Virus genome (UHGV): UHGV-0204244
DNA length: 22,624 nucleotides
Origin: a virus
Strand: one strand, 5' to 3'
Shown: positions 1,679 through 4,165 of the stretch, piece by piece
Layout: each line of letters starts with the position of its first letter
Position numbering within the stretch: the stretch's first letter is position 1
The notes under the pieces: model-generated
Told to the model about the DNA's origin: nothing
Databases searched by the model: none
Seen by the model: only the letters and a program-made list of their open reading frames with translations
Program-made: the position numbers and the translations under genes

Positions 1679-2372
1679 CAATTTTCACATCACCGGGCAG
1701 TCATAAAACTCACCATAAAGCTCTTCGTTGATGATGTACGTGATCACCAAAAATATCGCATCAGGACAAGTTCCATCTTCATGCGCAGGTATCTGTTCAT
1801 GCCTACCTGTCTGCAAACCAGTAATAAGCTATTACAGTGTGATAGTGATGCATCAACTACGATAAATGCAGAGAAATGATGCAGTGGTGGGAGGACTGGC
1901 TTGATGAAAAGGTGGAGTGATCCACCTTAACTACCGAAGAGAACAAAGCCTTGCAATCCAGTGCAAAGCTTTGTTTGTCTCAGTTTTGTCTCATCAACCA
2001 CAGCAAGTCATCGATCGATTGAGGCTTGGATGATAGACTTCATACCTTTGTATATTTCTGGTTTGTTGATGAAGCGAGTATTCTATGATATGTGCAATTA
2101 AACCCACTTTTCTGTCGAATCTGCAAGTCTAATAACTAATCAACTATAGGTATAGTATATTAATACAATTGTAATGTTTGGGTATCTAAATGATTAATTA
2201 TGATTCATAAATTTACTGATCTTTGAAGGTGTGGTTGATGAGGCAATTTTTTGTTTGGATGACGACTTTTCTCAAAATATCTACCATTCTTTTCCTTAAT
2301 TTCGCCATGCATGGCGCTTTGGTGTGATGGTTAAAAAATGAGCTACAAAAATTTAGACTTGATATAAATGGG

Positions 2373-3431
2373 TTGAGAGCCTTTGCTGTGCTGAGTGTAG
2401 TACTTTACCACTTCGGCGTGCCTTATGTATCAGGTGGATTTGTCGGTGTAGATGTTTTCTTTGTGATCTCTGGCTTCCTTATGACTGGAATTGTTCTTGA
2501 ACGCGTAGACCATAAAGGGGTGCTAGATTTTTATATCGCTAGATTTGTTAGAATTGTACCAGCTCTGGTAGTCGTAGTTCTTGCTCTGATGATTTTTGGT
2601 TTATTTGCATTGAGTACAAATGAATTTGAAATACTCAGCAAAAACTCCATATCATCCTTGCTCTTTTATTCTAATAATTATTACGCAATTCATTCTAGCT
2701 ATTTTGACCCTTCGTCAGAATTTAATTTCTTGCTTCACACTTGGTCACTTTCAGTGGAGTGGCAATTCTACATCTTTTACCCCTTACTAGTCATCGCAAT
2801 TAAGAAATTACGACTCCCTGTAGGAATTTCATTATCTGTAATTTTTGCCATATCGCTTGCAATCACATTTATGCGCGTGACTGGCTCCAGAGAGGACATC
2901 TTCTATCTTCTTCCAACAAGAGCCTGGGAGATGCTGGCGGGCGGACTTGTATACATGGCATCTGTACGTTACAAGCTACCAGAATGGTCTAGGCATTGTG
3001 ATGGCTATGGTATAGCCCTCATTGTTGTCGCTGTTGTTATGCTCCATAGTAATGGTTATTGGCCAAGCTATTCAACTTTAGCTCCTGTGATAGGGGCGAT
3101 TATAATTATTCTGTCTAATGATCAAAGTTCTATTTTAACCTCTAACAAAATTTCACAATGGGCTGGTAAGATTTCTTACTCTGTATACTTGTGGCATTGG
3201 CCTATCATTGTTGTAATGAAATATTACGACATACAATTTAGTGCATTAAATATATTTCTTGGTGTAATTGCATCTTTTATACTTGGAGATATTTCTTATA
3301 AAGTTATTGAAAATCCATTGAGAAAGAGAGAAAAATTTAAACTTAATCTCTCAATATTTTTGACTGTTCTGGCTATTTGCTTTTTTGTCATGCTTACTAG
3401 GGGGTTAGCTTTAGATTTTCAGATACTCTAA
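2373..3431 (+). CDS. Membrane acyltransferase, acyltransferase-3 (AT3) family; O-antigen acetyltransferase-like domain. Probably the N-terminal part of a disrupted fused AT3-SGNH gene.
   Basis: Highly hydrophobic 352-aa ORF with AT3 motifs (LRAFAVLSVVLYHFG, VDVFFVISGFLMTG). The called start is TTG. The frame stays open upstream to 2328, and an out-of-frame ATG at 2338 (MSYKN...) would join it if the A5 tract at 2347-2351 were A6. Visibly AT-rich compared with the phage structural genes. Confidence 0.8.
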   Translation: MRAFAVLSVVLYHFGVPYVSGGFVGVDVFFVISGFLMTGIVLERVDHKGVLDFYIARFVRIVPALVVVVLALMIFGLFALSTNEFEILSKNSISSLLFYSNNYYAIHSSYFDPSSEFNFLLHTWSLSVEWQFYIFYPLLVIAIKKLRLPVGISLSVIFAISLAITFMRVTGSREDIFYLLPTRAWEMLAGGLVYMASVRYKLPEWSRHCDGYGIALIVVAVVMLHSNGYWPSYSTLAPVIGAIIIILSNDQSSILTSNKISQWAGKISYSVYLWHWPIIVVMKYYDIQFSALNIFLGVIASFILGDISYKVIENPLRKREKFKLNLSIFLTVLAICFFVMLTRGLALDFQIL

Positions 3432-3451
3432 AACAAATTGTTGAATATCGC

Positions 3452-4165
3452 ATGGACAATACTCCATGGAGGCCAGATACCTGCTTTCTCAATCCAGAGC
3501 AAGATTATTCATCTTTTTCAAAATGTCATGACACCATGACTGAAAAGTCTTTCGTTGTTTGGGGTGACTCGCATAGCGCACATCTTATACCTGGTCTAAG
3601 ATCTGTGTTTGGGGACAAGATAAACATAACCCAAAGAACAGCAAGCCTTTGCCCTCCACTTATTGGTCTTGATATAGGAGGAAGACCACATTGTCGTGAA
3701 ATTAATAACAAGGTATCGAAAGAAATCGCTAATGCAAAACCAAACACCGTATTGCTTTCAGCAATCTGGTCTGTATATCCTATGCGCAACTATCTTCCAG
3801 ATACTATTAAATTCCTGAAGGATAACGGCGTTAAAAATATTATCGTTATAGGTCCATTCCCTGTATGGAAGAAAACAATGATTGATACTATAGAGGAAAT
3901 TGGCATTAATGCAGGAGGGACAATCACTTGGGATATGATTGATGGAACCAGAAACCTAAGAGGTAACGATAAATATCTGCAAAATCTGTCTAAAGAGAAG
4001 AAATTTACTTACATTTCACCACTTGAGGCTATGTGCACAGATAGTTATTGCAAAGCAATAGTAGAGCATAAAACTGCGTACCCTATACAATATGACAATG
4101 CACACCTTACACCAGAGGGTGCGAAGTGGTTTATTGGAAAGGTTGAGAATCAGATTTCAAAATGA
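3452..4165 (+). CDS. SGNH/GDSL hydrolase domain protein; probably the C-terminal domain of the same O-antigen acetyltransferase
   Basis: 237-aa ORF with SGNH blocks: GDSHS (block I), GND (block III) and DNAHLT (block V, DxxH). No convincing RBS before the ATG at 3452. Its frame is open back to 3401, and a G6 instead of the G5 tract at 3400-3404 would fuse it in frame to the AT3 ORF. Confidence 0.75.
   Translation: MDNTPWRPDTCFLNPEQDYSSFSKCHDTMTEKSFVVWGDSHSAHLIPGLRSVFGDKINITQRTASLCPPLIGLDIGGRPHCREINNKVSKEIANAKPNTVLLSAIWSVYPMRNYLPDTIKFLKDNGVKNIIVIGPFPVWKKTMIDTIEEIGINAGGTITWDMIDGTRNLRGNDKYLQNLSKEKKFTYISPLEAMCTDSYCKAIVEHKTAYPIQYDNAHLTPEGAKWFIGKVENQISK

Follow-up and report, generated by a model that had tools for sequence, protein, structure and literature searches.

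The O:5 abequose 2-O-acetyltransferase of Salmonella Typhimurium, OafA, is a 609-aa protein in which an AT3 domain is followed by an SGNH domain. Abequose is rare in E. coli O-antigens. By analogy with the characterised Salmonella OafA and OafB, the 10-helix AT3 domain of an intact enzyme of this type would move acetyl from cytoplasmic acetyl-CoA through the inner membrane. The SGNH domain, tethered in the periplasm by an eleventh helix, would then attach the acetyl to an O-antigen sugar by means of its Ser-Asp-His triad. The acetylated O-antigen would then present a changed serotype and a changed phage receptor. OafA with the substitution S412A or H590A keeps less than 1% of its activity (PMC7448272). 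Salmonella oafA is chromosomal and lies beside the remnant of a tail-fibre-assembly gene, and its convergent loss by frameshifts and IS insertions has been published (PMC9426603). The AT3 acetyltransferase gene oafA is phase variable in Haemophilus, and Salmonella oafB is epigenetically so (PMC9558356).

The Shigella phages Sf101 and Sf6 carry serotype-converting O-acetyltransferase genes, oacB and oac respectively, in the order integrase, attP, acetyltransferase (plus strand) and tailspike (minus strand). Oac and OacB (~390 aa) are AT3-only proteins that lack an SGNH domain. Fused AT3-SGNH proteins are encoded by Salmonella P22-like phages, namely BTP1 GtrC, g341c gp15 and SPN9TCW/SPC32H Oac. 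Here we analysed a 22,624-nt stretch of DNA (UHGV virus genome UHGV-0204244, hereafter the window) in which an AT3 ORF and an SGNH ORF occupy the same slot in different reading frames. The locus is probably a pseudogene of an OafA-type O-antigen O-acetyltransferase, a lysogenic-conversion (moron) gene placed between int/attP and the tailspike gene of an Sf101/Sf6-like temperate Escherichia phage of the P22 family.

Results

The landmarks from which a preliminary description had proposed a single gene split by two 1-nt deficits, namely the upstream TGA, ATG 2338, the A5 and G5 tracts, the AT3 and SGNH ORFs and the SGNH frame open back to 3401, are all present in the sequence (Table 1). The SGNH ORF proper (3452-4165) begins 20 nt downstream of the AT3 ORF and, as that description had noted, direct reading of the sequence found no Shine-Dalgarno sequence before ATG 3452. 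A check of sequence features revealed no signal peptide, export signal or membrane anchor in the SGNH piece. The AT3 piece cannot start in frame earlier than TTG 2373, and its C-terminus consists of 9 aberrant residues (LALDFQIL*). Intact alleles all begin with ATGAGCTACAAAAAATTTAGA, encoding MSYKKFR, compared to MSYKNLDLI* in the window; an A6-to-A5 deletion would have left this out-of-frame 9-codon remnant behind the ATG. Addition of one A and one G produced a single ORF of 609 aa containing both Pfam domains, which agrees with the ~609 aa proposed. The gene has a GC content of 37.4% compared to ~49% elsewhere in the window, and its longest homopolymer run is T6. It is convergent with the adjacent tailspike gene across a terminator hairpin common to the two, so its description as an AT-rich neighbour of the tailspike gene was correct.

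Table 1. Features of the acetyltransferase locus and its flanks, in window coordinates
Feature	Position	Strand	Basis
Sf101-type tyrosine integrase, sbcB-targeting; other flank of the conversion-gene slot	193..1371	-	
attP core, reverse complement of CGTAATCGTGAAA	1586..1598	-	Window sequence compared with the core in PMC4159516
TGA, in-frame stop upstream of the AT3 frame	2325-2327	+	Read from sequence
Putative ancestral start, ATG 2338, with 9-codon out-of-frame remnant (MSYKNLDLI*)	2338..2367	+	Translation
Lesion 1: A5 tract, one A short	2347-2351	+	A6 in every relative
AT3 (Acyl_transf_3) piece: TMH1-10 and candidate extra TMH11	2373..3431	+	ORF, Pfam, hydrophobicity
Lesion 2: GGGGGTT, one base short	3400-3406	+	Relatives in frame; same lesion in L007
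SGNH-domain piece	3401..4165	+	Frame open from 3401; first ATG 3452 (237 aa)
Bidirectional intrinsic-terminator hairpin	4167..4187	.	9-bp stem, 6 GC pairs, T-runs on both strands
Tailspike gene: P22-type head-binding domain and receptor-binding domain without solved relative	4191..6404	-	Adjacent to the acetyltransferase 3' end in L003, L008 and PM7

The repaired protein matched Pfam Acyl_transf_3 (PF01757) over residues 9-319 (E 2.4e-39) and the AT3-fused SGNH domain (PF19040) over residues 395-600 (E 1.7e-28). In the window as it stands, these two domains lie in different frames, so only the ancestral, repaired gene has the AT3-SGNH fusion. Each of the 120 best listed homologues carries the two domains on a single polypeptide, and many have a length of exactly 609 aa at 100% coverage. 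The repaired protein is collinear end to end with the fused 609-aa homologues, as the fusion model had predicted, and the alignment is continuous through the AT3-SGNH linker. It is 78% identical to a 609-aa S. Typhimurium acyltransferase cluster which, judging from its length, residue numbering and organism, is likely to be OafA, although no source names the cluster so. All 21 of the 21 functionally tested OafA residues (PMC7448272) are kept with identical numbering. The AT3 motifs, as defined in the same study (R/K-X10-H, FFxISG, RxxR, S112, G202 and E325 after TMH10), are found at R14 and H25 in TMH1, F41-G46, R69/R72, S112, G202 and E325. A hydrophobic segment downstream of E325 (residues 333-362) is a candidate eleventh transmembrane helix, and the window frameshift at residue 355/356 falls at its very end. 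The SGNH part has a catalytic triad of S412 (GDS), D587 and H590 (DxxH) and three cysteine pairs (C383/C397, C439/C453 and C567/C572), with the triad and cysteine positions invariant among 12 aligned homologues, and PDB 6SE1 (OafB SGNH) matched residues 406-608 (E 1.8e-9). Collectively, these results support a fused AT3-SGNH acetyltransferase of OafA type, predicted at 609 aa and split by two 1-nt deficits.

Window positions 1-1817 are 97.3% identical to a relative that we take to be Sf101 from locus coordinates, three subjects being pooled in this comparison. The attP core, which matches that of Sf101 (PMC4159516), has arm-type repeats (TTGGTACRC) on either side, at 1381, 1404, 1654 and 1666 (four found against 0.27 expected), indicating that the phage is in its excised permutation. 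The exact integrase protein adjoins sbcB/ExoI in integrated prophages; looking it up returned integrated prophages beside sbcB only and no further acetyltransferase copies. The int-tailspike slot holds oacB in Sf101 and intact 609-aa alleles in other sbcB prophages (L014), in line with the proposed placement of the window gene as an accessory conversion gene. The window phage shares with Sf101 its integrase and attP core, and with Sf101 and Sf6 the phage family and the expected role of modifying the O-antigen receptor. In contrast to oac and oacB, the window gene is of AT3-SGNH type, and there is no nucleotide similarity within the gene; the cassette in this slot has been swapped. In L003, L008 and PM7, the 3' end of the acetyltransferase gene lies next to the tailspike gene, with 97.6-99.5% identity; the tailspike thus travels with the acetyltransferase as one module.

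Such cassettes are rare in E. coli, with 1 full-length family member in 5426 complete genomes. A megablast search with the gene as query gave no match among 50,697 phage records, and tblastn matches to phage genes were at ~30% identity only. The BTP1 GtrC-type proteins of Salmonella P22-like phages align with the repaired protein over their full length at ~30% identity and belong to a different, OafB/GtrC-like subfamily of ~640 aa. The SPN1S gene is annotated as two ORFs, which suggests that similar splits also occur in Salmonella P22-like phages. Like S. Typhimurium OafA, the window gene is phage-associated, AT-rich and found inactivated, with the same length and domain order; unlike the chromosomal Salmonella gene, it lies in the int-tailspike slot of a complete P22-like Escherichia phage.

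The A tract reads A6 in E. coli FACU 2024, in contig L007 (Logan SRR7892440) and in nine intact loci at 77-92% identity. L007 is otherwise identical to the window over 8513 nt. Thus, A5 in the window versus A6 in L007 is the sole difference, and none of the 32 other tracts of at least 5 nt in the 8.5-kb overlap differs; this comparison is at the level of assemblies, not reads. Loss of one A from the A6 tract, which lies at codons 4-5, would cut the start codon off from the rest of the gene. P0130 and P0132 begin at the GTG equivalent to window position 2391, not at MSYKKF. A lone difference in 8.5 kb is not the commonest outcome of neutral drift; it could reflect an unstable tract, a minor variant or an effect of assembly. 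The A-tract lesion may have come later, as a second hit to a gene that was already dead, or it may be a minority variant or an assembly error.

The junction between the domains is in frame in all relatives. Those of at least 99% identity read GGGGGTTT (Phe356; G5T3), alleles at 92%, 87% and 77% identity read AAGGGTGTT, AAAGGTGTT and AAAGGCATA, respectively, and outgroups have GGTGTT (Val356) or GGCATA. Which base was lost at 3400-3406 is uncertain. Since close relatives have G5T3, outgroups have GGTGTT and none has G6, it was probably T rather than G. The frame repair proposed for this site was right, but a G6-to-G5 deletion finds no backing, as G6 was seen at the junction in no relative examined. 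The identical frameshift is present in L007, a second assembly. The window and L007 probably come from one sample, since the exact tailspike was matched in run SRR7892440 only; the junction lesion is therefore backed by two assemblers and not by two independent samples. We consider it a genuine mutation. It cuts the SGNH domain off from the membrane anchor just past the candidate TMH11, and what is left is an AT3 stub and an SGNH fragment that has neither a ribosome-binding site nor an export signal.

Two other candidates at the junction were rejected. Breakpoints of this mosaic gene lie near 2940 and 3900 rather than at 3400, which does not fit a recombination breakpoint at the lesion. P0071, a candidate for a second split at the same site, belongs to a different allele and has its insertion (G5 to G6) elsewhere in the gene.

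To the two putatively independent 1-nt deletions that break the window gene, public data add at least seven other interrupting lesions in the same allele, among them IS1 insertions at ~2823, 3226 and ~3324, one IS3-family insertion, a deletion that leaves just the last 297 nt and one more 1-nt frameshift. No uninterrupted copy of at least 99% identity was found in public data. The repeated hits by IS1, an IS3-family element, deletion and frameshift suggest that the gene is expendable.

Discussion

The preliminary description had left four alternatives for the split gene, and the evidence favours recent inactivation. From the domain architecture and OafA mutagenesis we infer that function has been lost, and the repeated inactivation of the allele mirrors the convergent oafA loss in invasive Salmonella. 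Accessory genes in decay of this kind are already documented, and the present case is an ordinary one that involves no new system or mechanism. The phage itself looks viable.

An intact 609-aa gene could be present in the real phage if one or both deficits were errors or reflected minority variants that the assembler had picked. Each deficit lies within a short homopolymer or next to one. The records DAR26750.1 and DAR26728.1 bear the label 'MAG TPA Caudoviricetes sp.', so that the window is probably a metagenome-assembled genome, and the A5 tract alone separates it from L007. Yet the assembly is not generally error-prone, since 14 other conserved ORFs are unbroken (16.6 kb, 36 tracts of at least 5 nt); the 13 structural ones among them match annotated relatives in length, and both assemblies carry the junction lesion. 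The probability that two random tract errors would both fall inside this gene is ~0.01-0.05. We regard an intact gene as improbable, and it is unlikely that both lesions are errors. Homopolymer error, which had also been put forward, thus fails as a general cause and stays in play for A5, where a sequencing or assembly error at that tract alone is quite possible, though short of probable. It is highly improbable, in turn, that the gene functions despite the split, either as two polypeptides, begun at the TTG or by reinitiation after the 9-codon upstream ORF, or through -1 slippage on A-GGG-GGU, which would re-fuse the domains at low level and read exactly TRGVSFRF. The upstream ORF does stop (2365-2367) 5 nt ahead of TTG 2373, O-acetyltransferases made of an AT3 part alone are known (Oac and OacB, for example), and a tRNA-Gly paired with GGG (3402-3404) can shift back by one base and pair again with GGG (3401-3403), where a rare AGG codon precedes and a UUA codon follows. 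However, the split is limited to one lineage among fused homologues, and the SGNH piece, having no ribosome-binding site, signal peptide or TM anchor, would at best remain in the cytoplasm. The low activity of OafA S412A and H590A argues that the AT3 part should not suffice, and the TTG-start product would lack F6 to G12, which are nearly invariant in the aligned homologues. At the junction, the zero frame as read from the sequence lacks an X-XXY-YYZ heptamer, relatives are all in frame, and no stimulatory RNA structure was detected downstream (z = -0.63). The suggestion of a working two-piece gene is not borne out.

Reversible slippage in the A and G/T tracts could instead switch a receptor-modifying gene in the lysogen population, and phase-variable AT3 genes have precedents in Haemophilus and Salmonella. 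The A5/A6 heterogeneity between otherwise identical sequences and the G5-to-G6 frameshift in another allele are consistent with this. At the junction, a path from AAGGGTGTT to AGGGGTGTT, followed by T loss (window) and T gain (G5T3, V356F, sister lineage), is slightly favoured, with frame loss and restoration needing three events compared to four; most parsimoniously, the Phe356 allele of the sister lineage would be a frame-restoring +T revertant of the G5T2 frameshift seen in the window. If such a switch operated, the gene would have been lost and then recovered as selection alternated, driven by immunity, phage predation or the cost of acetylation. Tracts of 5-6 nt are, however, too short for useful slippage switching rates in mismatch-repair-proficient enterobacteria. 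With two OFF lesions at once, neither reversion alone restores the gene, and the remaining lesions of this allele include irreversible IS insertions. The junction tract is not conserved, alleles at 77-92% identity reading GGTGTT or GGCATA, and A6 merely codes for a conserved Lys-Lys. Upstream of the gene, only isolated GATC sites and no gtr-type Dam/OxyR GATC cluster were found, so switching in the style of gtr or oafB was rejected. Gapped DNA patterns for both tracts returned no copies, and hence no further tract alleles, from IMG/VR or JGI metagenomes. Phase variation, another of the alternatives, thus finds little favour, and we doubt that the two tracts form even a slow reversible indel switch on this phage-borne gene.

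Gene decay remains the best explanation. That the phage-borne enzyme would have modified the phage's own receptor, as had been proposed, is a reasonable analogy. The value of the finding is modest: OafA-type (Salmonella O:5-like) cassettes are in circulation among Sf101/Sf6-like Escherichia phages, where they occupy the slot that holds oac and oacB in Shigella, and the two ORFs should be annotated as one frameshifted pseudogene, not as two proteins. In one public record, the SGNH piece is currently entered as 'Protein of unknown function (DUF459)'.

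Restoration of two bases yields a member of the OafA family

The preliminary description proposed an O-antigen acetyltransferase (AT3 + SGNH) split by two one-base deficits. On re-reading of the window, every coordinate proved correct (see table), and addition of one A and one G gave a single ORF of 609 aa with both domains on one chain. The gene was AT-rich as described, with a GC content of 37.4% compared to ~49% in the remainder of the window, and no Shine-Dalgarno sequence was found upstream of ATG 3452 in the window, in line with the reported absence of an RBS for the second ORF.

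Features of the acetyltransferase-tailspike region (window positions)
Feature	Position	Strand	Remarks
Stop codon TGA	2325-2327		
ATG	2338		
A5 tract	2347-2351		
AT3 ORF	TTG 2373 to 3431	+	352 codons
G5 tract	3400-3404		
SGNH ORF	ATG 3452 to 4165	+	237 codons; frame differs from AT3 ORF; open back to 3401
Terminator hairpin	4167-4187		common to acetyltransferase gene and convergent tailspike gene
Tailspike gene	4191-6404	-	receptor-binding part without solved relative
Arc/Mnt-like repressor gene	6445-6744		
ORF with lipoprotein-type signal (MKKSLLIIPLLLVGC...)	6779-7300	+	between Arc/Mnt-like repressor gene and gp16

In Pfam, residues 9-319 of the repaired protein matched Acyl_transf_3 (E 2.4e-39), and residues 395-600 matched the AT3-fused SGNH domain (E 1.7e-28). 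A homologue search covering 5.8 billion proteins returned thousands of matches. The best 120 were inspected, and 120/120 carried both domains on one chain; the alignment to these fused homologues was collinear, many of those listed being exactly 609 aa with 100% coverage. Homologues were found at 92% identity in E. fergusonii/E. coli, at 87% in E. coli and at 77-78% in E. coli, Enterobacter and Salmonella. The 78% cluster (1543 members) represents the S. enterica serovar Typhimurium acyltransferase of 609 aa, which we infer to be OafA itself. All 21 OafA residues mutated or flagged by Pearson et al. (PMC7448272) occur at the same numbers in the repaired protein, namely R14, H25, G34, F35, F41, G46, R69, R72, S112, G202, E325, three Cys pairs, S437 and the S412/D587/H590 triad. 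The sole solved relative by sequence search was the OafB SGNH domain (6SE1, E 1.8e-9). Collectively, the domains, fused homologues, shared residues and 6SE1 match identify the repaired protein, as judged from sequence, as a bona fide OafA family member.

Two lesions disrupt the reading frame

At the first lesion, every relative compared carries A6 (TAC AAA AAA TTT, Tyr-Lys-Lys-Phe), including E. coli FACU 2024 (99.5% identity), nine intact loci (77-92% identity) and the Logan contig SRR7892440_424. This contig differs from window 1646-10157 (8513 nt) by one base, in the A tract. With A5, ATG 2338 opens a dead-end ORF of 9 codons and the AT3 frame is startless before TTG 2373; translation from there would omit residues F6 to G12, which are nearly invariant. 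Two gene calls in the sister sub-lineage (P0130, P0132) begin with MLSVVLYHF, at a GTG equivalent to window 2391, and not with MSYKKF; these starts could point to an upstream lesion, perhaps A5 too, in other assemblies.

The one-base deficit at the AT3-SGNH junction is real. The frame repair proposed at the G5 tract was right, but its G6 ancestor was present in no relative compared. The window reads AGGGGGTTAGC, while relatives at >=99% identity (L003, the FACU 2024 locus FACU-2/L008, HFI6214284.1 and P0124 on four contigs) read ACT AGG GGG TTT AGC (TRGFS), and the intact 92%, 87% and 77% alleles read AAG GGT GTT, AAA GGT GTT and AAA GGC ATA, respectively. The window junction could be derived from G5T3 by loss of a T, or from GGTGTT by loss of its T. 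Phe356 (GGGGGTTT) is found in the sister lineage (3400-3406; L003, L008, L010 and L013 compared); the other alleles all have Val or Ile at this position. With the window state as intermediate and Phe356 as a +T revertant, three events are needed versus four otherwise, a small difference hinting that the Phe356 allele might be a frame-restoring revertant of the window frameshift, the gene having been lost and then regained. The junction lesion affects residue 355/356, at the end of hydrophobic segment 333-362 (putative TMH11), so that the AT3 stub terminates LALDFQIL*; the SGNH fragment is without anchor, signal peptide or RBS.

The window gene is likely a pseudogene

Artefact in both tracts is unlikely. 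The 14 other conserved ORFs (16.6 kb; 36 tracts >=5 nt, 9 tracts >=6 nt) were all unbroken, and the 13 structural ORFs among them had lengths exactly equal to those annotated in relatives. The probability of two random tract errors both landing in the acetyltransferase gene was ~0.01-0.05. The junction lesion was also present in the second assembly (Logan SRR7892440_424), where 1/33 tracts >=5 nt differed over the 8.5-kb overlap. Given this clean remainder, the clustering and the second assembly, we conclude that the junction lesion is a genuine mutation. Records of the exact tailspike protein come from one run only (SRR7892440), and two TPA proteins labelled 'MAG Caudoviricetes sp.' (DAR26750.1, DAR26728.1) match pieces of the window; the two assemblies therefore probably share one sample. 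For the A5 tract, a second hit is one possibility; a minority variant and a choice made by the assembler are others.

Phase variation by tract slippage, an option raised in the preliminary description, is kept alive by the A5/A6 polymorphism between assemblies, but is improbable since the tracts are short, the junction tract is not conserved among alleles, and two OFF lesions coexist, so that no single reversion would restore the gene. Among AT3 genes, known phase variation relies on tetranucleotide repeats or epigenetic switching (PMC9558356), and no gtr/oafB-type GATC cluster was found upstream of the gene. Recoding, or function as two pieces, is very improbable: no relative is split at the window's junction, no stimulatory structure was found downstream of it (z = -0.63), and OafA SGNH triad mutants retain <1% activity (PMC7448272). 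Of the options first offered, recent inactivation is the best supported; the phase-variation and two-piece options found no support, nor did the G6 detail. The window gene is thus likely an OafA-type lysogenic-conversion gene turned pseudogene by frameshift, in an otherwise intact Sf101-like Escherichia phage, its decay being of an already known mode.

The same allele is repeatedly interrupted elsewhere

In public data, the same allele (>=97% identity) is interrupted in at least seven further ways: by IS1 at ~2823 (L003; IS1-end tail of P0132), at 3226 (FACU-1) and at ~3324 (P0131, whose tail VMTPTY* is the IS1 end in another frame); an IS3-family element with everything before 3390 removed (FACU-2); a truncation leaving the final 297 nt, next to the remains of a transposase (PM7); a separate 1-nt frameshift (P0127, ...VIKIH*); and, in P0130, a join to foreign sequence. 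These lesions indicate that the gene is expendable. No uninterrupted copy at >=99% identity was found in the public data searched. Among 5426 complete E. coli genomes, a full-length member of the family was found in only one (75% identical) and fragments in two. The losses agree with the published picture for Salmonella oafA.

A 77% OafA-like allele sits in a myovirus-type prophage, next to genes for tail-fibre assembly and the baseplate and close to bioB/ybhB-like genes. One Logan assembly shows it frameshifted from G5 to G6 (L009 ~3990-4000, versus L016), and >20 other contigs have it intact. In Salmonella phage SPN1S (JN391180.1 / NC_016761.1), the AT3-SGNH gene is annotated as adjacent ORFs, 'acyltransferase 1' and '2', where the near-identical SPN9TCW and SPC32H have one ORF; this is probably a further frameshift split of the same kind.

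The gene occupies a conversion slot in a P22-like phage

The window corresponds to the late arm of a phage of the P22-like type (Lederbergvirus). Its order, int (-), attP, acetyltransferase (+), tailspike (-), gp16..., is that of Shigella phage Sf101, in which the AT3-only oacB fills the slot. The attP region (1372-1680) is intact. It contains the 13-bp Sf101/phage 2851 core at 1586-1598 (reverse complement of CGTAATCGTGAAA), with a TTGGTACRC pair on either side (1381, 1404, 1654, 1666; four found versus 0.27 by chance); these repeats are probably arm-type integrase sites. Since the same integrase adjoins sbcB in integrated prophages, the window, with its core and repeats, is the excised phage form and not an integrated prophage.

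Other sbcB prophages (e.g. L014) carry intact 609-aa alleles in this slot. The window gene is a recombinant mosaic. Its two ends (2338-2940 and 3900-4165) share 98-100% identity with the 87% allele (L014), and the part between them is nearer to the 92% allele (L010; 87-96% identity). Recombination breakpoints thus lie near 2940 and 3900 and do not coincide with the lesions. In FACU 2024, the allele is divided between two prophage loci: its IS1-truncated 5' part is at argW/intS (L001), and its IS3-truncated 3' part is at sbcB together with the tailspike (L008). PM7 has an acetyltransferase remnant and tailspike at argW. These placements indicate that the acetyltransferase-tailspike module moves between P22-like phages with different integrases.

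The best phage match of the tailspike's receptor-binding part was a protein of Escherichia phage AugustePiccard named 'lateral tail fiber' (40% identity); the tailspike ORF has a 16-codon in-frame upstream extension (737 versus 721 aa), which is probably untranslated. The lipoprotein-signal ORF matched no Pfam family and is possibly a moron or superinfection-exclusion gene in an immI-like region. GATC is scarce across the whole window, with 52 sites versus 89.7 +/- 8.1 expected from dinucleotide-preserving shuffles, 100/100 of which had at least 52.
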